A stretch of DNA of 64,000 bases from Thermodesulfobacteriota bacterium. GTDB taxonomy: Bacteria > Desulfobacterota > BSN033 > UBA1163. Location of the stretch: positions 25,120-89,119 of the forward strand of contig JBEKWN010000001.1 in the NCBI GenBank assembly GCA_049513055.1. Direction: 5' to 3'. Shown piece by piece: positions 1 through 45,626 of this stretch. Position numbers and translations under genes: made by a program. The notes under the pieces are model-generated. The model worked only from the letters and a program-made list of their open reading frames with translations, ran no database searches and was not told the DNA's origin. The first letter of the stretch is position 1. Each line of letters opens with the position of its first letter.

Positions 1-1
1 G

Positions 2-3525: not shown

Positions 3526-3855
3526 ATGGATCAGTATCGGCGCGAATGCAATATCAAGATGTTGTGGGCACTAGCCCTGCTCGGGATCGCTTATAGTAGT
3601 TTGCTCTTTTACCAGCGGACGCTAACCGATATGAATAACGTAGATGGTATCATCGGTGTGCTGCTCGGTCTTTACATCTGCTCACATCCAGCTGCCAATG
3701 TGGTGGATATGCTTTTCTTCAGGCGAAGTGCTCGAGGTCAGTTTTCATCAAGGCAGTCCGCTATATTGTGGCTGGCGCTAAATATGCTGGTCCTCCTGAT
3801 CGGGTGGATCGTCATTTTTGTCGGGACGACACGATTTGTCAGTAGAGCAGATTAG
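3526..3855 (+). CDS. Small hypothetical membrane protein (about 3 TM helices)
   Basis: ORF with hydrophobic helices; no recognisable family. Confidence 0.35.
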   Translation: MDQYRRECNIKMLWALALLGIAYSSLLFYQRTLTDMNNVDGIIGVLLGLYICSHPAANVVDMLFFRRSARGQFSSRQSAILWLALNMLVLLIGWIVIFVGTTRFVSRAD

Positions 3856-3913
3856 AGCGGTTTCCTTGTGGATATACACCACCAAAAGGATTTGGAAAAT
3901 AAGGAACTACAAA

Positions 3914-4165
3914 ATGAAATTTAATAAATCCCGTCCTGATGGTGCAAATAGCTTGAAGTTGATCTTTCGTGTACTATCCCATAAAAATTATCGTCTCTTC
4001 TTTGGCGGACAAAGTATTTCTCTGATTGGCACCTGGATGCAACAAATTGCCCTGAATTGGCTGGTATACCGGTTGACCGATTCAGCCTTATTATTAGGTG
4101 TTGTTGGCTTCATAAGTCGAATCCCAACAGTCTCCAACCAATACCATAAAGGAGAGTGGGAATAA
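3914..4165 (+). pseudogene. N-terminal fragment of an MFS transporter (EntS-like), truncated after ~75 aa
   Basis: MKFNKSRPDGANSLKLIFRVLSHKNYRLFFGGQSISLIGTWMQQIALNWLVYRL is a typical MFS TM1 region; ORF ends after 84 aa with no further TM segments. Confidence 0.5.
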
Positions 4166-29436: not shown

Positions 29437-30423
29437 CTATTTCATAAGCGAAAATATTTGAATTCGGCTATTGCCCCGATCTGCTATAAAAACCTCTCCC
29501 TTTTCGTTGATGGACATTTGTGATGGAAAATTAAGGAGTCCTTCGTTCCATCCCGCGCTGAGCTGCCGTCCCAGATAAGACCCATCCTGTCCAAGAATAA
29601 CGATGCCACCTCCGTTTTCGTCCACGAGATAAATGATCCCGCGGCTATCTGTGCTGATATTCGTAGGAAAATCTAAATATTCTCTCAGGCTCCTTGTGAG
29701 TGGGGCGAAGCTATTGGAGTCTTTTGCTGCTGAAAAAACCATGGCTTTGACGCAGTCGACCAACAAGACACTGCCTTTCGGATCAACCGCCAGGTCTGAG
29801 AAGAAACCATACTCTTGAGGGAAAGGGATCTGTTTCTGGTATTTCCCTTCCGGGTTGAGGATGAGGACACGGGCCGAGAATATATCGAGGAGGTAGATGT
29901 TATTATTAGCGTCTATCTTAACGCTCCTGGGAATAAAGGCCGATGGGGCGGGCACCCCTTCAGCGTCCACATAGCCCTTTAAGGCTCCTTCGGGCGTTAG
30001 TCTTACAACACGACGTCTTTTCCCGTCAAGGGCGAAGATCTCTCCCTTGGAGTTGAGTTGAACCCTGATGGGATTGGATAGCTGAGGAATCTTGATCTCG
30101 CTCCCGCCTTTTAAGTTCTTCCCTTCCAAGGTATATCGGAGAAGGCGATCGTTTCCAGTGTCTCCAATGACCAGGACAGATTTGTCATTGCAAGCAACCC
30201 CTTCCGGTTGTTTGATCCCTCCACCTCTGTCATCAAAATAGATAGATTGAAGATACTTAAACTTCACCGTCTCAGCACTGAAAGACTTCAATGGGAGAAA
30301 GAAAATGCTGATTAATAAAATAATTAGGCTGGAATAACGGAATAGTGGAATAATGGAATGTTGGGCCCAATATTCCAATCTTCCAATATTCCAACTTTCC
30401 ACTTTTTTGAACGACTTTTGCAT
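29437..30423 (-). CDS. NHL-repeat beta-propeller protein, secreted
   Basis: Repeated NHL-type blades (e.g. DRGNSRIQIFS, GIIYLVDENGGGIVIL); N-terminal hydrophobic signal. Confidence 0.7.
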   Translation of the reverse strand: MQKSFKKVESWNIGRLEYWAQHSIIPLFRYSSLIILLISIFFLPLKSFSAETVKFKYLQSIYFDDRGGGIKQPEGVACNDKSVLVIGDTGNDRLLRYTLEGKNLKGGSEIKIPQLSNPIRVQLNSKGEIFALDGKRRRVVRLTPEGALKGYVDAEGVPAPSAFIPRSVKIDANNNIYLLDIFSARVLILNPEGKYQKQIPFPQEYGFFSDLAVDPKGSVLLVDCVKAMVFSAAKDSNSFAPLTRSLREYLDFPTNISTDSRGIIYLVDENGGGIVILGQDGSYLGRQLSAGWNEGLLNFPSQMSINEKGEVFIADRGNSRIQIFSLMK

Positions 30424-30429
30424 GTTCCT

Positions 30430-31770
30430 TTACCTCTTGTATTGTTTATGACACTGAACGCAAAGATCCGTAACCGTTGGGAACGGAATCAGATATCGGT
30501 ATCCTGTTCCATGAGACCTATGACAACTCAGACAGTCCATCCTAAGATTCTTATTTCTTGAGTCTGCTACCTTCTCGCCCATCGGATGGCTTGTATGTTT
30601 TAACCAGTCATGGCAGGTTCCACAGAGTTCTATCATTGAGGGTTGCTTCAAAAGGAAGACGCTGTCCGAAGCATGGGAGGTATGACAGGCTTCACAATTT
30701 CCTTCCTGGATAGGATTGTGTGTGAGTGCACCCTTCATTACATTGTCTTTTGCAGCAGCTTTTTCCTGCCTTTCTTTCTCCGCAAGTCTCGTTTGCAACC
30801 CCATCGTGTCTTGATGGCACTTTCCACAAAGGCTTTTCATTTCTCCCATGAGGAGGTTCTTCCGTGGGGAGGCATGAGGTTCATGACAGTTCAAGCAACC
30901 CACTTTGTCTACTAAAGGCCAGTGTATCCTATTTTTGCTAAATGTATCGTTCATCATACTGCTGTGGCATCCCCGGCATAGCTCAAACCCCGCCCTCTTG
31001 GTTTTCAGTGCGTCGGCAGAAGTGGAGGCTTCATGGCACTGACCACACATTTTATTGGCAACCGGCTGATGCACATTATCAAACAATATACCCGCTTTAT
31101 CAGAGCCATGAGCATTGTGGCAGGAGGAACAGTCCGCCTTTGCCACAGGATAATTCATGTGTTGCTTGACAAAGTTTGGCTGGTCTGTCTTATGGCAGGT
31201 CACGCAGAGAACAACCAGATCATTTTTCAGAAGATATTTCGCTTTGGTGGAAGCATGTGGATCATGGCAGTTAATACAGCCTTTCTCTACAGGATTATGC
31301 TTGAATTTTGCTTTTGCAACGGTCTCCCCTATATTCTTGTGACAGTCGAAACAGAGATCATTTCCAGCCTTTAGAAGAACAAATTTGTTATTTGAGGCGT
31401 GGGGATCATGGCACTTTACGCAATTACCTTCCGTCACTACTTTATGACTGCTTTTAGGATTCTTAGGTACAATTCCTTCATGACACTTGTTGCAGATTTT
31501 GTTTGGGTCCGCATCCAGCAACTTTCCATGGGAAGAGGTATGAGGGTTATGGCATTCTGAACATTCCCCTGATTTCACAGGGGTATGGATAAATTGGTTT
31601 TTGAGCTTTTCTTTAAAATTGTCATGACAACTCAGACACAACTTTCCCTTTGCATCAGGTTTCAGTTTGAATTTGTTCTGAGCGTAGGAAAGTGAAAATA
31701 TCAAAAGAGACATGAACAAAATTGGTAAGAAGAGCCACTTCAACCTTAATTTCATAGATAGTCCTTTCAC
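30430..31770 (-). CDS. Multiheme c-type cytochrome, 16 CxxCH motifs
   Basis: 16 CxxCH counted in translation, doubled-CxxCH repeat units (C..CH.PH.S...LC..CH), signal peptide; probable start at internal Met 31755. Confidence 0.85.
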   Translation of the reverse strand: MKGLSMKLRLKWLFLPILFMSLLIFSLSYAQNKFKLKPDAKGKLCLSCHDNFKEKLKNQFIHTPVKSGECSECHNPHTSSHGKLLDADPNKICNKCHEGIVPKNPKSSHKVVTEGNCVKCHDPHASNNKFVLLKAGNDLCFDCHKNIGETVAKAKFKHNPVEKGCINCHDPHASTKAKYLLKNDLVVLCVTCHKTDQPNFVKQHMNYPVAKADCSSCHNAHGSDKAGILFDNVHQPVANKMCGQCHEASTSADALKTKRAGFELCRGCHSSMMNDTFSKNRIHWPLVDKVGCLNCHEPHASPRKNLLMGEMKSLCGKCHQDTMGLQTRLAEKERQEKAAAKDNVMKGALTHNPIQEGNCEACHTSHASDSVFLLKQPSMIELCGTCHDWLKHTSHPMGEKVADSRNKNLRMDCLSCHRSHGTGYRYLIPFPTVTDLCVQCHKQYKR

Positions 31771-31780
31771 TTTACTCTTT

Positions 31781-31804
31781 GCGCTATGCTCTATGCCCTC
31801 TGCG
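31781..31804. repeat. GC-rich 9-bp-periodic short repeat element (GCGCTATGC/TCTATGCCC units), copy 1
   Basis: gcgctatgctctatgccctctgcg in 37-bp gap between the two big cytochrome genes. Confidence 0.6.
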
Positions 31805-31807
31805 TTT

Positions 31808-33799
31808 TTATTTAGTTACAATGTGGCAGTCCTCACAGGATCTTCCCGCAAACGGAGGATGAACGACATCTTTGAAGAACTTCGGATCTTTTGAAGCATG
31901 GGGATCATGGCAATTCCTGCAATTCATGACCGAAGCTTCAATACCGATGTGGGCTTTGTCAAACGTGGCCTTCTTATAATCGTGGCATTCCCCGCAGAGC
32001 GGTTGAATCCGCTGATTCAGTAGGATCGGCTCTGCTGAAAAATGAGGCTTGTGGCACCTCTCGCAGTCTCTTGAGGCTGGTTGATGGGCTTTCTCTTTTT
32101 CCATCCTTACCTTCAGGTCTTTATGGCAAGTGAGACAGAGATCAGGGCTCTTTGCTAAAAGGAGCTTGTCTAATTTTGTCTTGTGAGGACTGTGGCACTT
32201 TGTGCATTCCCCATCGACAACTGGTAAGTGTTTGCTTTTGGCTGTGCCAATCTCTTTGCTCAAATCCGGATGGCAGGATAAACAGAGGGGCCCCTGTTTA
32301 TCGACAATCATCCCTTTCACATTGCTTGCATGAGCATTATGACAGGTGAGGCATTCCCCTTCTGCAAAAGGGTTATGGTTCGTGCCGTTCGTCTCCGCTT
32401 TCATGAGATCACCATGACACGAGGCACACATTTTTGCACCCACAAATCTCAGTATATTCTTCTCATTGGACCCGTGGGAACTATGGCAGGCATCACACTT
32501 AGCGTCCATCACTGGACGATGTGTGTAAGTTTTCAAAAACTTCGCTTCTGCATCCGTATGGCATGCATAACAAACCCGGTCCATCCTTTCCTTGATGATG
32601 TTTTTCATATTCGAGCCATGGGGATTATGGCATGAGTTGCATTCTCCCTCAGAAAAAGGAGGATGAGGCACTTTAGGTTTTACCTCTTTCGTTTTCGTAT
32701 GGCAGGAAAAGCAGAGCTCTTCATTCTTCATGTTCAAAAGATTCTTGTTCTTGGCTGCATGGGGTGGATGGCAGGAAAGGCATCCCTTCGCACTGGTCAC
32801 GGGAGTATGCTTAAATCCCACTTTCTCGCTCTGCTCTTTATGACAATCGAAACAGAGATCATTCATCTTTTTCAGTTCAAGCTTCAGATACTCGGAAGTG
32901 TGTGGGTTGTGGCATGTTAAACACTCCCCTTCTTTAAAGGGGCTATGTTCCACAGTGCCGCCAACTTTCAACTTTGAAGCATCGTGACAATTGTAGCAGA
33001 GCTTACTCCCTGTTTCAGTAGTGCCAAAAGGTTTTGGATCCGAAGCTGGCTTATGGCATGCATCACATTGAGCCAAGACAACAGGGTCATGAGCACTCGT
33101 TTTCAGGAGTTTTGCTTGCAATGAAGAATGTGGATTATGGCAGACGGAACAGATGGCTTGATTCACGGGATAATTGGCGTGAGCTTTTCTAAAGGATGGC
33201 TTGCTGATGTCATGACAGCCAAGACAGAGAGGAGTCTCTGCCTTCACCAAAAGGTCTTTTTGGTCAGAACTGTGGGAGAAATGGCACGTTGTACAACCTT
33301 TTGTCCCCACTTTATGGGCTACCTTCTTTTCATAACCCTCCTTTTTGTGACATTGATAGCAAGCTTCATTACCCTCTGCTTTCAACAAGTGACTGGATTG
33401 AGAAGCATGAGGATTATGGCACTGAATGCATTTTCCTCTTTTTAACGCCGTATGCACATTGGCTTTATTCATCCCAATCTTTTCTTTGCTATGGCATGGA
33501 TAGCAGATTTCATTTCCCTCTTTCTTAAGAAGCAGCTTGGGCACTAAGCCGTGCCGGAGATGGCAATCTTCGCATTTTCTCTCCTTCACTACTACGTGAA
33601 CATCTTTCATTCCCAGATACTTCTCAACAAACTTCTTGTGGCAGTCGAGGCATTCCCTACGGGCAAATTTCTTTCCCGAAGTTGGAGCACCTCCTAACGT
33701 CCTCGTCGCCGGTGCTTGGGCACAGGCATAGAGGATGGCTCCAATCATGATGAGAAAGATGACGAACAGAATGGCTTTGTGCTCTTTTAAGAAAGACAT
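31808..33799 (-). CDS. Multiheme c-type cytochrome, 26 CxxCH motifs, probable lipoprotein/secreted
   Basis: 26 CxxCH counted; regular doubled-CxxCH repeats; N-terminal signal ending AILYAC. Confidence 0.85.
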   Translation of the reverse strand: MSFLKEHKAILFVIFLIMIGAILYACAQAPATRTLGGAPTSGKKFARRECLDCHKKFVEKYLGMKDVHVVVKERKCEDCHLRHGLVPKLLLKKEGNEICYPCHSKEKIGMNKANVHTALKRGKCIQCHNPHASQSSHLLKAEGNEACYQCHKKEGYEKKVAHKVGTKGCTTCHFSHSSDQKDLLVKAETPLCLGCHDISKPSFRKAHANYPVNQAICSVCHNPHSSLQAKLLKTSAHDPVVLAQCDACHKPASDPKPFGTTETGSKLCYNCHDASKLKVGGTVEHSPFKEGECLTCHNPHTSEYLKLELKKMNDLCFDCHKEQSEKVGFKHTPVTSAKGCLSCHPPHAAKNKNLLNMKNEELCFSCHTKTKEVKPKVPHPPFSEGECNSCHNPHGSNMKNIIKERMDRVCYACHTDAEAKFLKTYTHRPVMDAKCDACHSSHGSNEKNILRFVGAKMCASCHGDLMKAETNGTNHNPFAEGECLTCHNAHASNVKGMIVDKQGPLCLSCHPDLSKEIGTAKSKHLPVVDGECTKCHSPHKTKLDKLLLAKSPDLCLTCHKDLKVRMEKEKAHQPASRDCERCHKPHFSAEPILLNQRIQPLCGECHDYKKATFDKAHIGIEASVMNCRNCHDPHASKDPKFFKDVVHPPFAGRSCEDCHIVTK

Positions 33800-33820
33800 A
33801 TATTCACCCTTTTAAACCAG

Positions 33821-33844
33821 GCATAGTGCAGAGCGCATAGGGGA
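33821..33844. repeat. Repeat element copy 2 (GCATAGTGC/GCAGAGCGC units)
   Basis: gcatagtgcagagcgcataggggg just upstream of the 26-heme cytochrome start. Confidence 0.6.
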
Positions 33845-33864
33845 TAGAGTAATTAGCTTTGCCA

Positions 33865-35514
33865 TTAATAGGTCAGGTAAACCTTCACATCCGAAACAGC
33901 TCTCAGTTTCTCTGCCCACTCCTCCACGGCTTTTTTAAGCTTATCATCAAAGACTATTCCGGCAATTTTCTTCTTTGCCTCCTCAAAGGGCTGAGGTTTC
34001 GCAGGAATCACATCCTGTATGGCCAGCGCATAGAAATAACCTTCAACACTTTCATATAACCTAAAATCACCAGGTCTTACCCCTGAAATAGATTTACGAA
34101 CTCCTTCAGGTAAATCTTTCGTAGTGAGAAATTTCCCTTCAAAGTTCAAGATGTCTTTACTATTACTCTTATCGATTTGGCCTTCTGCATTTTCCGTCAG
34201 CCACTGAAAGTCCGTACCTTTCCTGAGTTTCTCGAGCGCCGTTTCGGCAAACTCTCTTTTTGCAAAGACGAGGCTGTTGATCTTCATCATTTCCGGCATG
34301 GTATATTCTTTAATGTGATCATTGTAATACGTTTTAAGCTCCTCCTCCTTAAGCTCGATATCTGGGACGACCACTTTTTGAATAAATGCCCCGAAGATCA
34401 CAGAATTCTCATATTCTTTAACCCTGTTCTTATAGGTTTCCGTTTTGTCGATTCTAAGCCTAAGGGCTTCTTTCCTGAATACCCTTTTGTGCAGCATCTC
34501 GTTTAAGGCAGGAATTTTTCTTTCATTCAAATTTTTGCTTTCTATTGCCCTTTCGACCCCATGATAAAGCTGCTGCCTGAGATTATCGGTCAATTCTCCG
34601 ACCGTGATAGGCTTTTCTCCTTGTATCTCTGCGATGACCCGTTTATCCTCAAGAAGTTTTTGGAACCCTGGTTCCTTGGCCTCAAAGTCGATGTCGTCAA
34701 AAACCTTCTTATTCAATTTCACATACTTCTTGATCAGAGCATCATTATAATTCTCTAAAACTCCTTTCTTTTTCAAAACCAGAGCTTCGCGTTTTGCCAT
34801 TTCCCTGGCCTCTTCGCTTTCAGAATACCGAATGTCTTCAACTTTTAATACGGCAAAACCGGATCCCACGGGGATGATAGGGCTCACGGAGCCCGCCTCC
34901 ATCTTAGAAACTGTTTCAGCAACCTGCGGCAACAAGTCTTTTCGGCTCAAATAGTTACTTTCTTCGCCTCCCTTTGCGGCTCCATCCGAAACGACCTTTC
35001 GGGCCACTTCATCGAAACTCTTGCCTTCCTTGATCTCCTCCTCCATCTTCTTCGCGGAATCTTCCTTTTCGAATATGACGGATTTAATCTTCCATTCTTT
35101 TGCTAACTCCTTATAAATCTTTTCAATCTCTTTTTGGTCAGCCTTCACATCTTTCAACTGCCTTTCCGCCAATAACTCCCTGAGTGTGATGCGAGAGAAT
35201 ACATCTACCATATTTTTCACTTCGGGCAACTCATCAAGGCCGATCTTTCTGGCCTCTTGGATAATGAGTTTTGTATTGATCAAGCGCCTCAACAGTTCAG
35301 ACTCCGTACCTTTTTTCCCCTCGGCAGACTTGCTCCCCTTTAAAGAAGAGACCTCCTGGTTGAACTCCTGCAGAGTAATTGGTTCATCATTAACCATGGC
35401 AACTATTTTTTTGCCTTTCATTAATGGCAATTTCTGCTCCGATGCAAATACAGTTGCTTCGATAAGCAAGAAAATAACTAAGACTATTTTTGGTATCAAA
35501 GAAAGATATTTCAT
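33865..35514 (-). CDS. SurA/PpiD-like periplasmic chaperone with parvulin-type PPIase domain(s)
   Basis: Signal peptide MKYLSLIPKIVLVIFLLIEATVFA, SurA_N-like region, rotamase-like segment (PIIPVGSGFAVLKVED); start moved to internal Met so the intergenic repeat is not translated. Confidence 0.5.
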   Translation of the reverse strand: MKYLSLIPKIVLVIFLLIEATVFASEQKLPLMKGKKIVAMVNDEPITLQEFNQEVSSLKGSKSAEGKKGTESELLRRLINTKLIIQEARKIGLDELPEVKNMVDVFSRITLRELLAERQLKDVKADQKEIEKIYKELAKEWKIKSVIFEKEDSAKKMEEEIKEGKSFDEVARKVVSDGAAKGGEESNYLSRKDLLPQVAETVSKMEAGSVSPIIPVGSGFAVLKVEDIRYSESEEAREMAKREALVLKKKGVLENYNDALIKKYVKLNKKVFDDIDFEAKEPGFQKLLEDKRVIAEIQGEKPITVGELTDNLRQQLYHGVERAIESKNLNERKIPALNEMLHKRVFRKEALRLRIDKTETYKNRVKEYENSVIFGAFIQKVVVPDIELKEEELKTYYNDHIKEYTMPEMMKINSLVFAKREFAETALEKLRKGTDFQWLTENAEGQIDKSNSKDILNFEGKFLTTKDLPEGVRKSISGVRPGDFRLYESVEGYFYALAIQDVIPAKPQPFEEAKKKIAGIVFDDKLKKAVEEWAEKLRAVSDVKVYLTY

Positions 35515-35538
35515 CTCACTCCTTTTTCTATACACCAG

Positions 35539-35561
35539 GCGCTCTGCTCTATGCCCTATGC
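35539..35561. repeat. Repeat element copy 3
   Basis: gcgctctgctctatgccctatgc. Confidence 0.6.
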
Positions 35562-35567
35562 TTTCTA

Positions 35568-36659
35568 TCACTTGGCCATCATTTTCCCTATTGACTGAAC
35601 CATCTGGGAAGCCATGGCATGGGCGGTATTGACCCTCCCCCAGTCAAAAAAGAAGACGCCATCGTCCCCCGTATTATAACTGGTGGAACTCCAGACAACC
35701 TCTCTGCTCTTCCTTTCGATCACCTCTGCGGTAAAATCAACTTTCGGTTTTCCAAAACTGCCTTGGTAATCCTGATAATCGAGCACCTGTCCAGTCACGA
35801 CAAGATCGACATTCAACATTGCAAAAATGGCACCAGCGTCAGCCAGAGAAACCCCTTGATCCATGATAATTCTCAAATTGAGAAGCTGCTGTCTCACAAT
35901 ACCTGGTTCAATCACATCGAACTGTTCGAATTCTTTCAAATGCTTGACAAAATGGAGGGATACGATCTCCGCTCCATATTTCCTCTCGCTCCTGTTGAAA
36001 AAGGGGACAACCGCCACAGTGTATTTCCTCTTCCCTTCTATCACGGGTGAACGGAAAGATATCTTTGGTCGAAATTTCCTTTTCACAGACAGCCCTTTGT
36101 TCTCCTTCTGGCCGGAAAGACTTTCTCTTAGAGAGTCTAGCAAACGGTTCAGAGCCTTTTTTTGAAGCGTCTTAGGGTCTTCGATTAAACCTAAACCAAG
36201 AATACCCGGTGAATCATCGCCGGCCAATCCCACATCGTCGATCCACAGTATGGTAGGATTATCTCCGCTGGAAACGAGCCTCAAGGTCAATGCAATTTTG
36301 GGCGGATTCGTTTCATTATAGAGTTCGAGAGAAGTGATGAGCACGGCTTGACAGTCGATCTCATCCTTGAATTCTTTTGCCGTTATCTTATCGATACCTC
36401 CGGTGTAACGAATGCGATGCTTCGCCATAAATTTCTCGAGAGCATCCTCCTGAAGCACATCGATTCCCCTTGCCTTTAAACCATCCATAAGAGCTCCTCT
36501 TATCTCTTTAAGGGGCGACGCAGTTCCACTAAGGTTCTCCATTGGCAGGACGGCAATGAGGAATCGTTCTCCCATTCCGGGAAGATTTTCTTTCGTCGCC
36601 TCTTTCCCGGTTGCGCATCCGATAAGGAAAAGAAGCCCCGCAAAGAAAACAATTGTCAT
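35568..36659 (-). CDS. Lipoprotein with two LpoB/CsgG/TolB-N-like domains
   Basis: Lipobox LFLIGC; repeated modules FLIAVLPMENLSG... and YTVAVVPFFNRSE...VDLVVTGQV; start taken at MTIVFF to avoid overlap. Confidence 0.5.
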   Translation of the reverse strand: MTIVFFAGLLFLIGCATGKEATKENLPGMGERFLIAVLPMENLSGTASPLKEIRGALMDGLKARGIDVLQEDALEKFMAKHRIRYTGGIDKITAKEFKDEIDCQAVLITSLELYNETNPPKIALTLRLVSSGDNPTILWIDDVGLAGDDSPGILGLGLIEDPKTLQKKALNRLLDSLRESLSGQKENKGLSVKRKFRPKISFRSPVIEGKRKYTVAVVPFFNRSERKYGAEIVSLHFVKHLKEFEQFDVIEPGIVRQQLLNLRIIMDQGVSLADAGAIFAMLNVDLVVTGQVLDYQDYQGSFGKPKVDFTAEVIERKSREVVWSSTSYNTGDDGVFFFDWGRVNTAHAMASQMVQSIGKMMAK

Positions 36660-36660
36660 T

Positions 36661-37233
36661 TTATTTAAAAAGCTTGTTAACGAGATCATTCACAGCCTTG
36701 TCAGTAATGTCATTCATGGGCCTGCCACCCCCACCCAAGAGGCGATCCCAGATGCTGATCCCGCCTTTCGTCGTGGACGCAGTCCATACCACCTTCCCGG
36801 TCGTCCCCTCCATCATCTGGAGACTGACGGATATAATATTTGCAGAACTGGTACCTGACCTCACCTCACCATACTCTTTAACCACCCCCGTTACAACGGC
36901 CTGGGCTTTGATAAGTCCCGACAATTTTACGACCTCTTCTTGAGAAGGAGCAGCAGGATTCTGGATCTCTGCCCTGGCAATCCCTCTTGCAACCTCGCCA
37001 ATGGGGAGTACATATACAGCACCTGTGGATAATAGCTTGTTGATAAAGACATCTCTCACCCGTTCGCCAGCAATATTATCCCTTGTAAAGTTTAGGAAAG
37101 GCATGGCGGCAATGGTCTGTATCGCCCCGAAATCCATGTTTGGATCACGGTATATATTAGTTGTGGCACAAGCTGATACAAAGACGGGAACCAAAAACAA
37201 CAGAATTTTTAATAGACTGAAAGGTTTCTTCAT
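36661..37233 (-). CDS. Lipoprotein with one LpoB/CsgG/TolB-N-like domain
   Basis: Lipobox VFVSAC; IAAMPFLNFT...AQAVVTGVVKEYGE motif resembling previous gene. Confidence 0.5.
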   Translation of the reverse strand: MKKPFSLLKILLFLVPVFVSACATTNIYRDPNMDFGAIQTIAAMPFLNFTRDNIAGERVRDVFINKLLSTGAVYVLPIGEVARGIARAEIQNPAAPSQEEVVKLSGLIKAQAVVTGVVKEYGEVRSGTSSANIISVSLQMMEGTTGKVVWTASTTKGGISIWDRLLGGGGRPMNDITDKAVNDLVNKLFK

Positions 37234-37335
37234 AACCGACAGGACTCCCCCCCTTTTCCCAAAAAAAAATTAGATTGTGTGAAAATCGTCATTGAATTTC
37301 AATATCTAATACTTTTCCTATCTTGTCAATATCGC

Positions 37336-39507
37336 TCATAAAAATATCTTCAAATTAGCACTGAAACCGTTCGAATCCGATTTTTCCAATTTAGACGAAG
37401 TATGGATATACTGATAAGACAGGTCTAAGAAGGAACGGCTCGTTATATTCCATCTCACGCTTGGGGTTATCAGTCTGTTCTTCTGGTTATTTTCGGACAA
37501 TATGCTCTCATTATAGGAAAAATTAAATTGAAGCGTCCCTTCCGGAAAAGGTGACCAGTTGAGCCCGTAATTCTGGGTCGTCTGAATCTTCTGACCTTTT
37601 TGCGCTAATATTTCCCATGAGGTAAAGATATATAACGTTTCAAAAGGACGGTAGGCTACACTCAAGTCTCCCCTCCTTGCAGAAGTAGAAGTAGACGGCA
37701 GACCGCCACCAGATTGGTTTGTCGTTGTATCAGAGTAAATCAGAGTTATTGTCGTGGTTCTGTGGGGAACGATATTTGCGCCGAAATTGATGACGGTGTT
37801 GTTCTGCTTTTGACCTGTCTCTAAGGTCGAAAAATTGTACCCCCCACCGAGATTAATATCGATCCCTTTGTACAATGTTGCATTGTTTTGCAGAAAGATT
37901 GAATTATTCTTTGTTGATTTCCCACCAATCTCTTCTATGCGTCCACTATAGATGAGATTGTGCCGAAGGGTTGTCAACGGAGTGGCAACGATTGAGGCAT
38001 TGTATACGTAGGCCCACCTTTTCTTCCCCTCTTCAGTGCCATCTTCTCTTGCTACTCTCGCGCTCCCTGAAAAGATGGGATTAAACCTGTGATTCACTGA
38101 CAACCCGTTCGAAACAGTGTACGTGGTCTGACCAAGGTCTGTTTTGTCGAGGAAATAAGAGAACTCATAAAAAAGCGTGGGGATATCCAAAATCCTTGTT
38201 CTTGAATCGATGTTAAGAATATGGGTAAGTTTCGTGGTTCTGCCTTTCACCTGTTCCGCAGGCTTCTTTATAAATGCCTGCAACTCTGTGATGAAAATGT
38301 TTGGAAAACTTATTGCCCCGCTGACAAAATTTTGAAGGGGGAGGGTCACCACCTTTATATATCTTGTCGTTACTGGATTTATGAAGTTGATTTCAAAACG
38401 GTTTTGGAATTGTCCGGGAGAAACAGTAACGCCTAAAACTTGCGTCCAATTCAGGTTATCTGAACTTGTCCATACTTGGATATTTGAAAAAAAGAAGGTT
38501 AAAATGTTCGTTGCTGCAGAAAGGTCCCTATCAACCCACAGGAAGAGGCTGTTTACCTGTGTTGAAACCAAAAAATCGAGGCCTACCTGCCTTAGGCTCG
38601 TCGTATCTCCACCAAGAGGAGGAAGTCCAATATTGATGCCGGCGCTTGTAGTGGTATTCCCGTCAATGAGAGCTGGATTGGAATCAAGTGTTATGGGACT
38701 AGCCGTAATATTAATAATAGAAAGCCCTGCAAAAGGAGAAATTTGGGAGCTTACCGTTCCTCCTTTGCCTGTTGCAGTGGTATTGGTTTCTTCATAAGTG
38801 ATGTTGTAACTCCCGTTAAAAGAAACCCGGTTGTTAAAAAACATATCCGAGTAAGTAATTCTTCCGGTGTTCAGGTAATCTTTCGTGTCCACTCCGTTCA
38901 ATTTGTCTTTTGTATCGGTATACGTACCTTGATATCTGACATCGAGGTTCTTATACGTATATCTGGCGCTCAATAAACCATAGTCAGTGGTGGTATCCTG
39001 AATACTATGTTTTTCATCAAAGAGATTAGTTCGGGTAAGCCGCACATCGATGACCGGAAGTCCCTCGGGCCTCCAGCCTAAAATGACATTGTAGTCCTCA
39101 TTCACAGTAGTAACACCGGGGGAACCTGAAGTTTTCACTGTTTCCTGCCTTCTGTCATAACCGATTCCAGCCGTATAGAGGGGGGTGTTGAGCGTAAGGT
39201 TGATATAGGGACGCAGGTCGGTCGTATCCGATTTCGTTCTCATTCCATCAGTTTTGTCCCAGGAAATATTCTTTTCAACAACGACGCCAGCATCCAATCT
39301 CAAATTAGGAAAGATGTTTGTGTTTACCGTAAGGGTCACTCGAGGATTGAAATTATTCGTTACTGTTTTGGTAGTCACCCCCGTCGCATCTGTTGTCTTC
39401 GTAGATAAAAAATTATAGTTTAACTCTAAGAGGCCGCTTACGCCTTGAAGGAGTCCCTGTGCACTCGCCATGCCCGGTAACAACACCAAGACCAGCAAGA
39501 TAAGCAT
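37336..39507 (-). CDS. Predicted large outer-membrane beta-barrel protein (~720 aa)
   Basis: Signal peptide MLILLVLVLLPGMASA, Thr/Asn/Ser/Tyr-rich alternating amphipathic strands throughout, no TM helices; start moved from 39540 to Met at 39507. Confidence 0.45.
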   Translation of the reverse strand: MLILLVLVLLPGMASAQGLLQGVSGLLELNYNFLSTKTTDATGVTTKTVTNNFNPRVTLTVNTNIFPNLRLDAGVVVEKNISWDKTDGMRTKSDTTDLRPYINLTLNTPLYTAGIGYDRRQETVKTSGSPGVTTVNEDYNVILGWRPEGLPVIDVRLTRTNLFDEKHSIQDTTTDYGLLSARYTYKNLDVRYQGTYTDTKDKLNGVDTKDYLNTGRITYSDMFFNNRVSFNGSYNITYEETNTTATGKGGTVSSQISPFAGLSIINITASPITLDSNPALIDGNTTTSAGINIGLPPLGGDTTSLRQVGLDFLVSTQVNSLFLWVDRDLSAATNILTFFFSNIQVWTSSDNLNWTQVLGVTVSPGQFQNRFEINFINPVTTRYIKVVTLPLQNFVSGAISFPNIFITELQAFIKKPAEQVKGRTTKLTHILNIDSRTRILDIPTLFYEFSYFLDKTDLGQTTYTVSNGLSVNHRFNPIFSGSARVAREDGTEEGKKRWAYVYNASIVATPLTTLRHNLIYSGRIEEIGGKSTKNNSIFLQNNATLYKGIDINLGGGYNFSTLETGQKQNNTVINFGANIVPHRTTTITLIYSDTTTNQSGGGLPSTSTSARRGDLSVAYRPFETLYIFTSWEILAQKGQKIQTTQNYGLNWSPFPEGTLQFNFSYNESILSENNQKNRLITPSVRWNITSRSFLDLSYQYIHTSSKLEKSDSNGFSANLKIFL

Positions 39508-39508
39508 G

Positions 39509-39525
39509 GCGCATAGCGCAGAGCG
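39509..39525. repeat. Repeat element copy 4
   Basis: gcgcatagcgcagagcg immediately 5' of the chosen start of the beta-barrel gene. Confidence 0.55.
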
Positions 39526-39648
39526 TAGATCGTATTTCATCCAGAAAGCCCTTATAGCTATGTGACTTGGTAGAAAAAGTGGAATAGGATGCTTCGGATT
39601 GAACGCCTAACCAAATTTAACCGCTTTGAGTTATTCAAATTTTTCTCA

Positions 39649-39679
39649 CGCTATGCGCTAAGCGCTCTGCGCTATGCGT
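39649..39679. repeat. Repeat element copy 5
   Basis: cgctatgcgctaagcgctctgcgctatgcg abutting the stop of 39681-41099(-). Confidence 0.6.
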
Positions 39680-39680
39680 G

Positions 39681-41099
39681 TTACCGTTCTCCCATCATCG
39701 TCACCCAGTACGGGCTCTCCCCCACATCGACGATGAAAACCATCTTTTTACTGATAAGATTGGAACCCATTAAAGTTTTCATTCCAGGATTTATCATGAC
39801 AAGGTTATTCTCTTGGCCATCGATGGTCATATAGCTTATGCCTCCACCCGTATTGATAAAATCCACAGGGACGAATGAAAAAGGGTTATACGCCTCCACC
39901 ACCGTATCGTTTTTTCTCCCGAGATAGACGAGATCCGTGTTCGTTTCGACCTTTATAGACTCCATCCCCATCCTTACTTGAAACCTTCTTGCCACCGAGA
40001 GAGAAAGAGGATCTATAGCACTCACGTAAGAAGACCACTCATGAATGACATAAATTTTATCACCGTTTCTGTTAAACTGACCTCTCAAAGGACTTGGATC
40101 TGTCCCTATGGTAGCCAAAAGCATTTTGTTCGGAATATCGATAACAGAGACAGTGCTGGCCATGGTATTGAAGACATAAGCTCTCCTCCCTGTAGAATCT
40201 ATCAAGACCGAATTCGGCCCGTTTCCAACCTTGAGTCTGTTCACCTCTATTAGAGAACTGGTATCGATGAAACTCACGGTATTCGACCCTGGATTCACGG
40301 TAAGAAGAAGTCTGTTATCAGGGGTAAGGGCAAGCTCCTGAGGATGATCTCCGGTATTCAGGCGAATCCTGTCGATAACGTCTTCTGCAACCACGTCCAC
40401 AATAGCAATTGCGTCATCTCCTGAGAGTGCCACATAGCCTCTCCTCAATTTTTGGTCGAGGGCCATTCCCATGGGTTTTCTCCCGGTTGCGATGATGGCC
40501 ACGGCGAGCCCCGCCTGTTTGTCAAAAACTGTGATATTGCTGGAACCGGGGTTAGTAACGTATCCTGCAAGATTTGAAAGAGGCTTGCCAGGAATAGACA
40601 TGGAGAATACAGGACTGAAGCTGAAGCCACCTTTTATTGATTCAGGATATTTAAACCTCGCTGAAATAAGGTACGCCTTCTTTCTTGCCACATTAAATGA
40701 AAAGTCAATTTTTACCGGCTCTTCAGGAGATCGAAGGGTAGCTTCTCCCTCTTCCACTTTTAAGACAGCACTTTGAACCAGAAATGAAAGTCCACTATAT
40801 GAGCCTTGAGGCAGCCTGCCTGAAGCAAGAAGTCGCTGCCTTTTCATATCAGGGCCTTTCAACTGGTGCAGGGAAACATCAAGCGCGAATTCCCGACCAT
40901 CGCTGCTTACGGCAAAAACTTTCTCAAGGGTGAATCTGAGCCTGTCTGCCTCTTGAGGGAGAGGTTGGATATAAAGGTAGATTTCTCCTTCTTCTTCAAG
41001 GGGTGGCCTCACTGTTGAGATTGCTGCTTGGCAACCCACGATTACGAAAAGAACGCAGAGGGCATAGAGTATAGCGCATAGCGTTTTCTTAAAGGTCAT
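39681..41099 (-). CDS. YVTN-family beta-propeller lipoprotein
   Basis: Lipobox VIVGCQAA; YVTN-type repeats (GYVTNPGSSNITVFD, YVALSGDDAIAIVDV etc.). Confidence 0.6.
   Translation of the reverse strand: MTFKKTLCAILYALCVLFVIVGCQAAISTVRPPLEEEGEIYLYIQPLPQEADRLRFTLEKVFAVSSDGREFALDVSLHQLKGPDMKRQRLLASGRLPQGSYSGLSFLVQSAVLKVEEGEATLRSPEEPVKIDFSFNVARKKAYLISARFKYPESIKGGFSFSPVFSMSIPGKPLSNLAGYVTNPGSSNITVFDKQAGLAVAIIATGRKPMGMALDQKLRRGYVALSGDDAIAIVDVVAEDVIDRIRLNTGDHPQELALTPDNRLLLTVNPGSNTVSFIDTSSLIEVNRLKVGNGPNSVLIDSTGRRAYVFNTMASTVSVIDIPNKMLLATIGTDPSPLRGQFNRNGDKIYVIHEWSSYVSAIDPLSLSVARRFQVRMGMESIKVETNTDLVYLGRKNDTVVEAYNPFSFVPVDFINTGGGISYMTIDGQENNLVMINPGMKTLMGSNLISKKMVFIVDVGESPYWVTMMGER
41055..41083. repeat. Repeat element copy 6, overlapping codons of the signal peptide of 39681-41099
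   Basis: gcagagggcatagagtatagcgcatagcg. Confidence 0.55.
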
Positions 41100-41289
41100 T
41101 TTACAGCACCTCCATCTGTTGATAAACTCCCTTTGGTGGAACCAGCCAGATTTTGCGAGAAACCGAACCCTAAGACTATTAAATCTTATAACTCTTCCAA
41201 ATTCAACTACAAAAAAAGAGGGCTGACATTTTTGCCAGCCCTCTTGGCATTCTACGTCGAGACAGGATATCTCGACATTTCAGCACGCA

Positions 41290-42612
41290 TTAGTCTTTTA
41301 CGTGGCACTTGTTGCAGAGAGACCTCTGAAATGTCGCGTACATGCTCGGAGGCCTACCATACATTGCCGCCGGATACTCGGTTTTATTATATATGCTAGT
41401 TGCAGTAGCTGAGACAGGATAGGCACTACTTTCGGTAATAAATTCAAAGTCGTTGTCCCATCTGGTCATGTGGTCAAATCCGGTTGCATGCGCCCTGTGG
41501 CAGGAGAGGCACATCACGTTTTCAGATCCTCCATTTGGTCCCCCTATCACTGAGCCATCGCTCACTGCGTGCTTAGCGAGAGCTACCCGGTCCGAAGTAT
41601 GCTCCTCATAAGGCACCATTGAGGTGTATGAGTTAGCTGACGTACCGCTCAGGTCGCCCGACTTTACATACATGTTGTAGTTAGTGTATGCATCCACTAT
41701 ACTACCCTTCAACACGGCGGCGTTACTTGCCGGGTGAATCAAATTTGAACTTAAGCTATCGTTGTGAATTGCTGTATGGCAATTCGTACACCATTCTGAC
41801 ATGCCCTGACCATAAGCAACCCTGGTATCAGTGGAGGTCTCTTGCCTGTTGTACGAGCTGGGCGCCACAGCAAAAGGCGGATCGTAATTAAAGGCAGGAC
41901 CACCAGCATAAGACTTCGGCAAATAGCTTTTACCACCCAGCAGTCGGTATACACCCACGGTATCTGTTCCGGTTGGTATAGCGCCAGTAGAACCGGACCC
42001 TATAATAGGACCGGGAGTCGATCCTGCTCCGCCCCGGTATACGAGCGTACCACTGGCGTTTATTCTGGCGGATGGATGCGGATCGTGACAACTGATGCAG
42101 CTAAGGTTGTTTGCTGAGTAAGTACCGCCAGGGGCGGTGTGTAGCGTACTATCTGGTAATGCCAACCCCGAAAAATCTGTGGCGACAACGTTATGGCCGT
42201 GTCTCTCGCCGAGAACTGCTGCCGTATGCATATCACTCGTAGCGGTGTAAGTAAATGTCAGCCAAGCGAAGTCTCCACCCGGAGTATAGTTAGCAGGAAC
42301 CTGTGTCCCTTGTTTGGCGTCGCTGGTAAACACGTGGTAGCTGCTAGCACTGGCCGCCTTGCTTGCGTGGCAGAACAGACAGGTGGAACTCTGGTCAGTT
42401 CCTATGAGAAGGGACTGATTACCCGTGTATTGAGCAGCCTTCCCACTTAACCCTTTCTGTGCAGCCTTTACACCTCCAACGGAGTTGTGCATGGTATGGC
42501 ATCCATCGCATGTTGCAACGCCGCCTTCATGGAAGGCATATGCCATTCCGCTTAAACCAATAGTTACCAGGGCTGCAGCCATGATAACCAAACTTAACTT
42601 CACTGCTTTCAT
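41290..42612 (-). CDS. OmcS-family hexaheme c-type cytochrome (homolog of the Geobacter nanowire-forming cytochrome OmcS)
   Basis: Signal peptide then FHEGGVATCDGCHTMHNS; 6 CxxCH; matches OmcS across length including RVAYGQGMSEWCTNCHT, CLSCHRAHATGFD and C-terminal QRSLCNKCHVKD. Confidence 0.85.
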   Translation of the reverse strand: MKAVKLSLVIMAAALVTIGLSGMAYAFHEGGVATCDGCHTMHNSVGGVKAAQKGLSGKAAQYTGNQSLLIGTDQSSTCLFCHASKAASASSYHVFTSDAKQGTQVPANYTPGGDFAWLTFTYTATSDMHTAAVLGERHGHNVVATDFSGLALPDSTLHTAPGGTYSANNLSCISCHDPHPSARINASGTLVYRGGAGSTPGPIIGSGSTGAIPTGTDTVGVYRLLGGKSYLPKSYAGGPAFNYDPPFAVAPSSYNRQETSTDTRVAYGQGMSEWCTNCHTAIHNDSLSSNLIHPASNAAVLKGSIVDAYTNYNMYVKSGDLSGTSANSYTSMVPYEEHTSDRVALAKHAVSDGSVIGGPNGGSENVMCLSCHRAHATGFDHMTRWDNDFEFITESSAYPVSATATSIYNKTEYPAAMYGRPPSMYATFQRSLCNKCHVKD

Positions 42613-42774
42613 TTCATCCTCCTAATTAGTTTTTTGATTTTTTGTTTTTACTTTCTTTACGTTACCTTTTACTGCTTACTTATAACTATTCTTGATTGCC
42701 CTTCAACCACCTCCTCCACCATTTTCTATTTTCCCCCGCATAACAACCCCCCTATTAATCCAACTACGCAAAAC

Positions 42775-42812
42775 GCATAGGGCATAGCGCAGAGCGCAGA
42801 GCGCAGAGCGCC
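42775..42812. repeat. Repeat element copy 7 (includes GCAGAGCGC x3)
   Basis: gcatagggcatagcgcagagcgcagagcgcagagcgcc between OmcS-like gene and NHL gene. Confidence 0.6.
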
Positions 42813-42834
42813 TAGCCCTTTTTATAAAAAGGAA

Positions 42835-43806
42835 TCAGTCGTACTTCACCTGGAAAACGCTGACTCCTCTCCTTGCACTCTGGCTCACGTAAATCCTTCC
42901 CATATTATCTACGGTTAATTCCATGGGTGCGATCAAATTACCGGGCCCATATCCGCGGTAGCCAAATTCTTTTAGGAACTTGAAATCCTTATCAAAGACC
43001 ATGACCACGCTTCTTAATGTGTCAGTCAGATACAAATATCCTTTATCATCAGATGCAATGCCTCCAACGATATTAAATTTCCCCGGAGCGCTTCCCCTTT
43101 GGCCAAAAGATACTATTTTGCGATCAGGGGAGAGTTTGAAAGCTTGAAAAATCGTAGGAATAGTAAAAAAGATATTTCCTTCCTTATCCACATTGAAGCC
43201 TACGATGCCCGTATCGGCCCTTTTCTTTTCATCAAAATGGAGAAGAGCAGCCAGGTCGTAGCCATCCAGATAAGCACCGCTCATATCGGTCACTGCAACC
43301 CTCATCTGACCTTTGTCGATCAGATAGAGGCGACCTTCTCTATAAATGATGCTGCTTGGCGAGATCCTGGAGAAATCGGAAGGAAGATTTTGTGGTTCGA
43401 ATCTCGATATAACCTCTCCCCTGTAATTGCAGCGGATAATCGAATAACTTTTTCCTTTTACATCATGTTTGTAAGAGAGCAGAAGAATGTTTCCATCCTT
43501 ATCAACGGCGAGGTGAGCTATATTAATATTTCCAAGGTCGCTGTCCTCGCCGAAATTGTAAATTTCCATTCCATTTTCATTAAATATCCTCACAGACCGG
43601 TCCGACCCGTCGCACACATACACCTCGTTCGTTTCCTTATCAAGAGCAAGTTCTACCCAGCTGTAAGGTATTGCACCCGTAAAGCTTGAGAGGTTGTAAA
43701 GATATGATGCCTTTACGGGTTGTCCCTCTACAATTCCGGAAGAAAGAACCAAAAAAGCAATTGCGATTAGGATCAATAACTGTTTTGCCGGGTATCTCAT
43801 ATTCAT
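42835..43806 (-). CDS. NHL-repeat beta-propeller protein, secreted
   Basis: Signal peptide; NHL-like blades (YVCDGSDRSVRIFN, YLYLTDTLRSVVMVFD, GRIYVSQSARRGVSVFQV). Confidence 0.65.
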   Translation of the reverse strand: MNMRYPAKQLLILIAIAFLVLSSGIVEGQPVKASYLYNLSSFTGAIPYSWVELALDKETNEVYVCDGSDRSVRIFNENGMEIYNFGEDSDLGNINIAHLAVDKDGNILLLSYKHDVKGKSYSIIRCNYRGEVISRFEPQNLPSDFSRISPSSIIYREGRLYLIDKGQMRVAVTDMSGAYLDGYDLAALLHFDEKKRADTGIVGFNVDKEGNIFFTIPTIFQAFKLSPDRKIVSFGQRGSAPGKFNIVGGIASDDKGYLYLTDTLRSVVMVFDKDFKFLKEFGYRGYGPGNLIAPMELTVDNMGRIYVSQSARRGVSVFQVKYD

Positions 43807-44031
43807 AACTCTTTGCTATTTCTATAGAGCAAGCCCCATGCCAAAACTCTTCGAATCGTTGCCGCAAAAACCTTTTAAAAATAGAAGAGAAAAGCTTTTA
43901 AATTCAATATATTAGATGAGGCAAAAAAAGGGGTACGAAGCTATTGATTTGTAGTCCATGTGAAAGTAGGTGCTTATTAGCGTAATATCCCGCACCTCTG
44001 TGGATTCTCCCACAATGATATTGTTAAAACC

Positions 44032-44060: not shown

Positions 44061-44210
44061 AAATTCTTAAAGCTAAGAGCGTGGAAGGAATTAGAATTCA
44101 ATTAAGAATGTGGAGTTTTAGAGAAAAAACGAGATATGAATCTTAGCGAACGAGGGGATTGCGAGATATAGCTTTTGAGATTTTAGATTCTAAAGTTTTA
44201 AAGTTTGAAC

Positions 44211-44238
44211 TCTATGCTCTATGCCCTATGCGCTATGA
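44211..44238. repeat. Repeat element copy 9
   Basis: tctatgctctatgccctatgcgctatga just 3' of the response-regulator gene. Confidence 0.6.
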
Positions 44239-44249
44239 GGTTCTTGGGA

Positions 44250-45626
44250 TTACGATTCAAGAATAGCGAACTTCTGCATTCGGTACCGGAGGGCGTCCCG
44301 ACTGATGTCTAAAAGTTTGGCGGCTTTGGTTTGATTGCCGTTGGTTATCTTAAGTGCCTGCCTCACCAGGGCTTCTTCTACTTTTTCCATCGAAATTCCT
44401 TCTGGTGGAATTCGAATGCCTTCGATCACTCCCCCCCGTTTCGATGCTTGGCCAAGAATCTCTATGGGCAGATGCTCCATGAGGAGAGTATCTTCTTCAA
44501 TAAGGATCATTGCCCTTTCAATCACATTTTTCAATTCTCGTACATTACCTGGCCAATTATAATTCCTGAGGAAGTCCTCTACTCCTTTTGAAATTTTTTT
44601 GACATTCTTATGGAATTCCTCGTTATATTTTTGCATGAAGTATTTCGTCAGGGGAAGAATATCACTCGGCCTCTCACGAAGGGGAGGAATTCTAATTGAG
44701 GCGACATTAATCCTGTAAAAAAGGTCTTCCCGGAATTTGCCTTCCTCCTTTAATTTAAGCAGATCCTTGTTGGTTGCCGTTACAATTCTTACATCCACTT
44801 GAATATCTTTTAACCCACCCATTCTACGAAAAGTCTTTTGCTCTACCAATCTCAAGATTTTTCCTTGTAGGTTCAGGTTCATGTCCCCGATCTCATCCAA
44901 AAACAACGTCCCTCTATCTGCTATTTCAAGAAGTCCCTTTTTCACTTCTTTGGCATCAGTGAAGGCTCCCTTCTCGTGACCGCAAAGTTCATTCTCCAGC
45001 ATCTGTTCCGGGAAGTTGGCACAATTGACTGTAATAAAGGGCATATTCTGCCTTTTACTCCGCTCATGGGTGAGGTGAGCGATCACTTCTTTTCCTGTAC
45101 CACTTTCCCCTTGAATCAGCACTGTTGCCGTTTCACTTTGGGCAATCTTTTCAGAAATCTGAAGAACTCTTCCCATCTCCTGACTCACTGCGATAATGTT
45201 ATCAAAACCATACCAATTTCTCTTTTCCCTTCTGAGATGTCTGACCTCCCTCTTGAGTTGCGAGGCTTCCAATGCCTTCTGGATGGATAAGTGAACCTTA
45301 CTAAAGTCAAAAGGTTTGGTGATATAGTCAAAGGCTCCTAATCTCATTGCTTTAACCACCTTCTCAACCTCGTCAAACGCGGTGATCATGATAGGAATAA
45401 TACCCTCATCTATCTTAAGTGCTTTCTCAAGGACTTCATAGCCATCCATCCCGGGCAGTTTGATATCGAGAAGAGCTAAATCCGGTGCTCCCTCCTTCAC
45501 TTTTTCCAGTGCCTCCTCACCCGTTTCCGCAAGGAGAACTTCGTAACCCTCCTTCTCCAAATTTTGTTGGAGGGTCCACCGGATCAAATATTCATCATCA
45601 ACCACTAAGATTCTGGCTTCAGACAT
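44250..45626 (-). CDS. Sigma-54-dependent Fis-family response regulator (NtrC-like)
   Basis: Receiver domain, AAA+ sigma54-interaction domain (GESGTGKE, GAFTDA), C-terminal HTH. Confidence 0.9.
   Translation of the reverse strand: MSEARILVVDDEYLIRWTLQQNLEKEGYEVLLAETGEEALEKVKEGAPDLALLDIKLPGMDGYEVLEKALKIDEGIIPIMITAFDEVEKVVKAMRLGAFDYITKPFDFSKVHLSIQKALEASQLKREVRHLRREKRNWYGFDNIIAVSQEMGRVLQISEKIAQSETATVLIQGESGTGKEVIAHLTHERSKRQNMPFITVNCANFPEQMLENELCGHEKGAFTDAKEVKKGLLEIADRGTLFLDEIGDMNLNLQGKILRLVEQKTFRRMGGLKDIQVDVRIVTATNKDLLKLKEEGKFREDLFYRINVASIRIPPLRERPSDILPLTKYFMQKYNEEFHKNVKKISKGVEDFLRNYNWPGNVRELKNVIERAMILIEEDTLLMEHLPIEILGQASKRGGVIEGIRIPPEGISMEKVEEALVRQALKITNGNQTKAAKLLDISRDALRYRMQKFAILES

Follow-up and report, generated by a model that had tools for sequence, protein, structure and literature searches.

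Three adjacent genes in a 64,000-nucleotide stretch of DNA from a bacterium of the Thermodesulfobacteriota (GenBank assembly GCA_049513055.1, contig JBEKWN010000001.1, positions 25,120 to 89,119 of the forward strand; hereafter the window) encode a large outer membrane beta-barrel protein of 734 amino acids (aa) and two lipoproteins of 190 and 373 aa, and the trio is probably the OscE/OscF/OscG (OetI) outer membrane module of an OmcS-type nanowire biogenesis cluster, to which it is orthologous by position and family. An earlier reading of the same DNA, made from the sequence alone (the original prediction), had suggested that the trio could be a previously undescribed envelope machine of no annotated family. 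That the three proteins form an envelope module is well supported by their co-occurrence across genomes, but the claim of novelty does not hold: the genes occupy the OscE, OscF and OscG positions of the osc cluster, the barrel family was named OetI in 2023 (PMC10553843), and both kinds of protein have homology to known machinery, the lipoproteins to PelC and the barrel to OetI/OscE. The trio is therefore a known, widespread and already named system found in a new genome, and not a new machine.

The three genes were found where the original prediction had placed them, as co-directional open reading frames (ORFs) on the minus strand (Table 1), within a single tight cluster (29437-43806) in which every large ORF lies on that strand. 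The cluster runs in the order NHL protein, OmcS-like cytochrome, beta-propeller lipoprotein, barrel, lipoprotein, double lipoprotein, SurA-like peptidyl-prolyl isomerase (PPIase) chaperone, 26-haem and 16-haem cytochromes, and a further NHL protein. The OmcS-like gene shares the strand of the barrel gene and lies 1.7 kb upstream of it, and its product aligned end-to-end with OmcS (PDB 6ef8; phmmer, E = 1.1e-106), including the mature N-terminus FHxGGVAxCxGCHTMHNS; it is the presumed cargo or filament subunit. An omcS-companion (osc) cluster of Geobacter sulfurreducens is attributed to Shen et al. 2025 (Cell Chem Biol 32:239), as cited in PMC13194489 and in bioRxiv 10.1101/2025.10.22.684050. 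PMC13194489 assigns OscH to folding and OscD to morphology, proposes OscE, OscF and OscG for secretion of OmcS nanowires, and gives the locus tags oscC = GSU2501, oscI = GSU2495 and oscJ = GSU2494. Mapping letters to numbers on this basis places OscD at GSU2500, OscE to OscG at GSU2499-2497 and OscH at GSU2496, and the order of genes in the window is identical. The same paper describes a superposition of OscD over 473 aligned residues, which fits the 472-aa propeller lipoprotein of the window. The Tn-seq (transposon sequencing) paper PMC5585712 contains no data for GSU249x.

The likeness to G. sulfurreducens OscE-OscF-OscG is thus one of slot, between an OscD-like propeller lipoprotein and an OscH-like PPIase and downstream of an OmcS-family gene, and of composition, with a large barrel, a small lipoprotein and a larger lipoprotein. 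The window differs in having one OmcS-like gene in place of the omcS/omcT/oscC paralogues, and in coming from the metagenome-assembled genome (MAG) of an uncultured bacterium, known here from its genes alone. Membership of the barrel in the same family was traced through a published tree. Murali et al. 2023 (PLoS Biol, PMC10553843) gave the name OetI to the barrel encoded next to omcS-like genes, as the porin of a putative OetABI conduit, and the leaves of their OetI tree include Geomonas oryzae WP_129126949.1 and G. sulfurreducens WP_010943136.1. By exact look-up, the former is the barrel orthologue in one of the related loci described below (L023), and is 39% identical to the window barrel over its full length. 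The latter is five accession numbers below OmcS (WP_010943141.1), an offset that corresponds to GSU2499, i.e., oscE, and RefSeq numbers track gene order in the Geomonas locus as well (barrel ...949, double lipoprotein ...947). Since the tree holds both the Geomonas orthologue and WP_010943136.1, OetI and OscE probably belong to the same family, of which the window barrel would be a member. The OetI conduit porin and the OscE secretion channel therefore appear to be one protein family under two names, and no cross-reference between these names was found in the available texts.

In order to examine how far the arrangement is shared, an alignment of the barrel was scanned against one genome per species, which yielded 38 related loci (G. 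sulfurreducens not among them) spanning Nitrospirota/Thermodesulfovibrionia, Thermodesulfobacteriota and Acidobacteriota, with the cultured hosts Geomonas oryzae, G. edaphica, G. azotofigens and Geomobilimonas luticola among the Thermodesulfobacteriota. The barrel gene was followed directly by that of the 190-aa lipoprotein in all 38 loci, and the 373-aa lipoprotein was present in 37, the sole exception being cut by a contig end. The propeller lipoprotein was detected in 37 of 38 and the PPIase in 36 of 38, and the D-E-F-G-H core order was kept in nearly all. A full-length OmcS homologue (40-57% identity to 6ef8) was present in 35 loci, one locus has an assembly-fragmented copy, and the loci in which none was detected are contig-truncated. 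The 26-haem and the 16-haem cytochrome genes were each found in 32 of the 38, the 26-haem gene wherever a locus extended far enough, and in a minority of loci these genes are placed on the opposite flank of the barrel gene, in some cases with their strand reversed; the NHL gene upstream of the OmcS-like gene was found in 31. The 190-aa protein is 50-74% identical across the three phyla. In the Geomonas and Geomobilimonas loci (L016, L023, L026, L027) the barrel orthologues are 39-41% identical to that of the window, and the syntenic lipoproteins 60-62% (190-aa) and 43-48% (373-aa). The spacing between the two lipoprotein genes is not constant: in an Acidobacteriota locus (L028, 12753-15776) the OscF-like and OscG-like genes are separated by one for a 1007-aa polytopic membrane protein whose C-terminal domain is spermidine-synthase-like, and four other loci, Acidobacteriota loci such as L022 and L025 included, show gaps of 2-3 kb (L022, L024 and L025) or 1 kb (L015) at this position.

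The prediction of a large beta-barrel, Thr- and Asn-rich and free of helices, was largely borne out. Thr makes up 12.5% and Asn 8.6% of the 734-aa protein, which carries a cleavable signal peptide and has ...KIFL at its C-terminus. The structure model of this protein, built on 108 sequences, is of high confidence (predicted local distance difference test, pLDDT, 89.6), and consists of 11 long strands (residues 34-256), a jelly-roll insert of approximately 170 aa and 17 further strands (433-733), for a total of about 28; helix is confined to the signal peptide and to a single short segment of the insert, everything else in the model being beta, so that the absence of helices held in all but these. 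The insert, placed between strands 11 and 12, resembles CBM32 in structure comparison, is the most conserved part of the barrel, and is probably an extracellular loop, if strand 1 of the model starts in the periplasm. Among solved barrels, MtrB (6r2q_B) had the highest template modelling score (TM-score, 0.33-0.36) and the most aligned residues, with similar values for TonB receptors, ushers and LptD. Neither single-sequence nor profile searches with the barrel matched any PDB entry. The barrel family is uniform in length and, when clustered at 50% identity, comprises 1297 clusters, of which 602 have E ≤ 1e-30. The upstream end assigned to the barrel gene by the original prediction, 39507, corresponds to an internal start at Met12, and both the resulting 723-aa form and the 734-aa form are on record.

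Both lipoproteins carry a lipobox, FVSA-C22 in the 190-aa protein and LIG-C25 in the 373-aa protein; the Cys is at least 90% conserved among homologues of the former, and 'GCA' is kept at this position in the consensus of the latter family. The repeated module that had been noticed in the two proteins (AV.PF.N.S ... VVTG) is real, appearing as AAMPFLNFT/VVTG in the 190-aa protein and as AVLPMENLS and AVVPFFNRS/VVTG in the 373-aa protein. In profile-profile alignment (hhalign), the 190-aa protein matched the C-terminal half of the 373-aa protein with 97% probability (E = 6e-11) and its N-terminal half with 73% probability (E = 3e-5), and the two halves matched each other over 137 columns (E = 2e-4). 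For the 373-aa protein, an AlphaFold2 model from 88 sequences (pLDDT 78.7, predicted TM-score 0.79) contains two tandem alpha/beta modules with an identical order of elements. Foldseek searches with this model bear out the proposed LpoB/TolB-N/CsgG type of fold, with PelC (5t0z/5t10/5t11/9h80, from Geobacter metallireducens, Paraburkholderia and Pseudomonas) as the best match (E ~1e-8, target TM-score 0.68-0.81), followed by GNA1162, CT253, LpoB, FlgT, TolB and CsgG. By sequence, the 190-aa protein matched PelC in the PDB (9h80_C, E = 4.4e-7, plus 5t11/5t10/5t0z), its family profile doing so more weakly than the single-sequence query, and the profile of the 373-aa family gave no PDB match. PelC is the sole family that both lipoproteins matched by sequence among solved structures, and is also their best fold match. 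The two lipoproteins are thus built of one and two copies, respectively, of a PelC/LpoB/TolB-N-type module. No statement of this kinship was found for the Osc lipoproteins in the literature searched, and Shen et al. 2025 may contain one.

Family databases describe these proteins unevenly. The barrel and the 373-aa protein were recognised by no Pfam or NCBIfam family (the latter protein gave no Pfam match of any kind), and for these two the earlier statement that no annotated family is recognised stands as far as the databases go; it fails for the 190-aa protein, which passed the cutoffs of Pfam LpoB (3.4e-7, 30.7 vs 22.3 bits) and, at the gathering threshold, of the GNA1162-like family PF05643 (4.4e-6, 26.8 vs 25.9 bits), and it fails in the literature, where OscEFG and OetI are described. 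The window proteins are deposited at NCBI as MGA2314801.1 to MGA2314805.1 under the names 'hypothetical protein', 'GNA1162 family protein' (the 190-aa protein, MGA2314802.1) and 'cytochrome C', and homologues have been called 'TolB-like protein' (373-aa, JGI), 'polysaccharide biosynthesis protein PelC' (several 190-aa proteins, JGI) and 'penicillin-binding protein activator LpoB' (some, NCBI). In one Nitrospirota MAG (L012, 13156-21031), the PelC-like modules of the OscG-like protein are split by approximately 2200 aa of Calx-beta-like repeats and fall into two overlapping ORFs, probably a single gene that is frameshifted within the repeats, in which case contiguity of the two OscG modules would not be required.

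Most likely, in our view, the trio is a PelBC-like assembly for the export or anchoring of OmcS filaments, in which lipoproteins form a ring beneath a giant barrel. The OmcS-like hexahaem subunit would be exported by Sec and would acquire its haem and its fold in the periplasm, aided by the adjacent SurA/PpiC-type chaperone, which would deliver folded, haem-loaded subunits to the outer membrane. There, OscF and OscG would be lipid-anchored in the inner leaflet, and by analogy with PelC their three modules could line the periplasmic rim of the barrel as a ring or vestibule; the precedent is the periplasmic ring of twelve lipid-anchored PelC copies on the PelB barrel (PMC12141448). The barrel of about 28 strands would serve as passage and anchoring point for the subunit or growing filament through the outer membrane, with the highly conserved CBM32-like insert as a possible gate, plug or surface docking element. 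A more specific form of this proposal, which we put forward tentatively and consider less probable than not, is that OscF (one module) and OscG (two) make a hetero-oligomeric PelC-like ring, e.g., of four copies each to give twelve modules, under a monomeric barrel whose CBM32-like loop gates the pore or docks the fibre, so that an exporter architecture of the PelBC type has been re-used for a folded, haem-loaded protein polymer. Such a ring and barrel might double as an electrical junction to the periplasmic 26-haem and 16-haem cytochromes. The ring and its stoichiometry, the transit of a folded cargo and the function of the insert are inferences.

Several points weigh against this interpretation. 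The orthology of the window barrel to G. sulfurreducens OscE is indirect, being based on synteny, a published tree and accession arithmetic, and the role of OscEFG in OmcS secretion is a proposal taken second-hand from papers citing Shen et al. 2025. The preprint bioRxiv 10.1101/2025.10.22.684050 speaks for the interpretation in so far as it gives a porin-like pathway as the current hypothesis for the mounting of OmcS and notes large barrels in the majority of OmcS and OmcE regions, but it describes the secretion of nanowires as 'unanswered'. The sequence similarity to PelC is remote (16-21% identity, with a profile E of only 9e-4), ring formation by OscF and OscG is drawn purely by analogy with PelC on PelB, and a folded hexahaem protein of 45 kDa would have to pass through the barrel lumen.

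A different function has been proposed for the same barrel family. In the OetABI model, OetI is a porin that sheathes one or both of the giant multihaem cytochromes encoded downstream, so that electrons, and not protein, cross the outer membrane to or from the OmcS-like filament, and the PelC-like lipoproteins would be accessory stabilisers; PMC10553843 mentions no lipoproteins other than the cytochrome OetB. We regard this as a minority possibility. The frequency with which 26-haem and 16-haem cytochrome genes accompany the barrel speaks for it, as does the rank of MtrB among solved barrels, but the likeness to MtrB is generic, given the comparable scores of TonB receptors, ushers and LptD. 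In MtrCAB and the Geobacter Pcc conduits the porin gene adjoins those of the periplasmic and extracellular lipoprotein multihaem cytochromes that sit inside or on the barrel, whereas the 26-haem and 16-haem genes of the window are three genes downstream of the barrel gene, and in the minority of loci noted above lie across it, on either strand. Moreover, OscI and OscJ are given as periplasmic in PMC13194489, and a pure conduit would not account for two components, namely the co-translated SurA/PPIase chaperone and the PelC-type modules, whose top structural matches have polymer export as their single role defined by experiment. The conduit and export readings are compatible, because the base of a filament must be wired to the periplasm.

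The kinship with PelC could also be taken literally, with the lipoproteins as true PelC equivalents and the barrel, through its carbohydrate-binding-like insert, exporting a glycan matrix in which the cytochromes are embedded, as the JGI naming of several 190-aa homologues, the PDB match to PelC and the CBM32-like character of the insert would allow. The likeness to Pseudomonas aeruginosa PelBC (PDB 9h80; PelC 5t0z/5t10/5t11) is indeed that lipid-anchored PelC-type alpha/beta modules are encoded beside an outer membrane barrel. However, PelB has 16 strands and a tetratricopeptide repeat (TPR) domain, whereas the window barrel has about 28 strands and a CBM32-like insert and lacks a TPR domain; PelBC has one lipoprotein, and here two different ones carry three modules; the neighbours are cytochromes, propellers and a PPIase, with no PelA/D/E/F/G or glycosyltransferase gene among the cluster genes of the window (the related loci were screened solely for homologues of those cluster genes); and the cargo, a cationic glycan in PelBC, is presumably a haem protein polymer. 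Together with the co-occurrence of the trio and an OmcS homologue in every locus but the fragmented or truncated ones, these differences make a glycan exporter very unlikely. Least credible to us is that the lipoproteins are LpoB-type regulators of peptidoglycan synthases that stand beside an unrelated porin by chance: the Pfam LpoB match exceeds its cutoff and NCBI has used the LpoB name for some homologues, yet the equivalog model TIGR02722 scored 19.8 bits against a cutoff of 110.55, there is no penicillin-binding protein gene near the trio, and the lipoproteins keep strict synteny with the barrel and OmcS in all three phyla.

Two further fibre systems are of comparative interest. Ushers of the chaperone-usher pathway are plugged, 24-stranded barrels that have periplasmic domains at both termini and are partnered by an Ig-like chaperone. 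The mid-barrel beta-sandwich of the window barrel recalls the usher plug, but membership of the family fails, and identity with PapC/FimD was rejected: the model has no terminal periplasmic domains, no usher Pfam family was matched, the chaperone is of SurA/PpiC type where ushers use an Ig-like one, the CBM32-like insert probably belongs to an extracellular loop, and TonB-dependent receptors resemble the barrel at least as closely in structure. The curli protein CsgG, a lipoprotein involved in the export of a fibre subunit, is of the same fold superfamily as OscF and OscG; it differs in that nine CsgG subunits build a 36-strand pore, in place of a separate monomeric barrel, and the match is weak (E ~4e-4, TM-score 0.2-0.36).

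The features of the cluster are collected in Table 1. Within it, the OscG-like start overlaps the OscF-like stop by 29 nucleotides and the OscG-like stop overlaps the PPIase start by 4 nucleotides, so that the OscF-like, OscG-like and PPIase genes are coupled.

Table 1. Coordinates (window numbering) of the OmcS-type nanowire cluster and associated features.
Feature	Position	Strand	Details
Sigma-54-type promoter-like site TGGCATGGGGCTTGCT	43828..43843	-	~22 nt upstream of first cluster gene; one mismatch
NHL-repeat beta-propeller protein, first cluster gene	42835..43806	-	Pfam NHL, SBBP, DUF5128
OmcS-family hexahaem cytochrome	41290..42612	-	6 CXXCH; phmmer vs PDB 6ef8
OscD-like beta-propeller lipoprotein, 472 aa	39681..41099	-	Pfam YNCE-like propeller; NCBIfam beta_rpt_yvtn
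OscE/OetI-family outer membrane beta-barrel, 734 aa	37336..39540	-	signal peptide, cleavage between ASA and QG; ~28 strands
CBM32/discoidin (F5/8 type C)-like jelly-roll insert, aa 259-430 of barrel	38251..38766	-	
OscF-like lipoprotein, 190 aa, one PelC-like module, Cys22 lipidation site	36661..37233	-	
OscG-like lipoprotein, 373 aa (Cys25), PelC-like modules aa ~41-195 and 205-373	35568..36689	-	
OscH-like periplasmic chaperone, SurA-N and two PpiC-type PPIase domains	33865..35571	-	Pfam Rotamase_2 1.6e-26, SurA_N_2 4.9e-12, Rotamase 2.7e-9
26-haem c-type cytochrome (OscI position)	31808..33799	-	26 CXXCH motifs
16-haem c-type cytochrome (OscJ position)	30430..31770	-	16 CXXCH motifs
NHL-repeat beta-propeller protein, last cluster gene	29437..30423	-	Pfam NHL 6e-15

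A putative sigma-54-type -24/-12 element, the site at the head of the table, stands directly downstream of genes for an NtrC-type sigma-54 activator (44250-45626) and a HAMP histidine kinase (45690-47198). Because the site adjoins these genes, its position suggests that the nanowire cluster may be under two-component, sigma-54 control; across the whole window the motif type occurs 2 times vs 1.5 expected, which is not above chance. Scans for sigma-70 promoters and terminators gave no enrichment over shuffles. The strongest terminator-like hairpin of the region (41216-41245, minus strand; 13 pairs, of which 7 are G-C, and a T-run) lies between the OmcS-like and OscD-like genes, and fits partial termination, which would, as happens in pilin operons, favour expression of the filament subunit over that of the assembly genes. 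Near-tandem short motifs, GCGCTCTGC in three copies and CATAGGGCATAGAGCATAGAG, occur in the two spacers flanking the first NHL gene (42790-42830 and 44210-44240, minus strand). Away from the cluster, positions 1-4000 of the window have a G+C content of 0.55-0.56, compared with 0.40-0.48 elsewhere in the window, and code for the C-terminal part of an AcrB-type RND (resistance-nodulation-division) pump and an outer membrane efflux protein; this segment may have been acquired recently.

Taken together, the locus itself adds nothing categorically new, and the recognition of PelC modules and of a conserved CBM32-like insert are useful by-products rather than the discovery of a new system. The picture of the known system is nevertheless sharpened: the Osc lipoproteins amount to three PelC-type modules in all, the barrel is unusually large and is most conserved in its CBM32-like insert, the link of the module to OmcS homologues is invariable in three phyla (Nitrospirota, Thermodesulfobacteriota and Acidobacteriota), and the 'OetI conduit' and the 'OscE secretion channel' of two separate papers appear to be one family. 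The database names 'LpoB', 'PelC', 'TolB-like' and 'hypothetical' can be corrected accordingly. A 2025 preprint still termed it unanswered how micrometre-long cytochrome nanowires cross the outer membrane and are attached to it; the leading candidate for the machine involved is OscEFG/OetI, and the features described here provide concrete targets for structural and genetic tests of that role.

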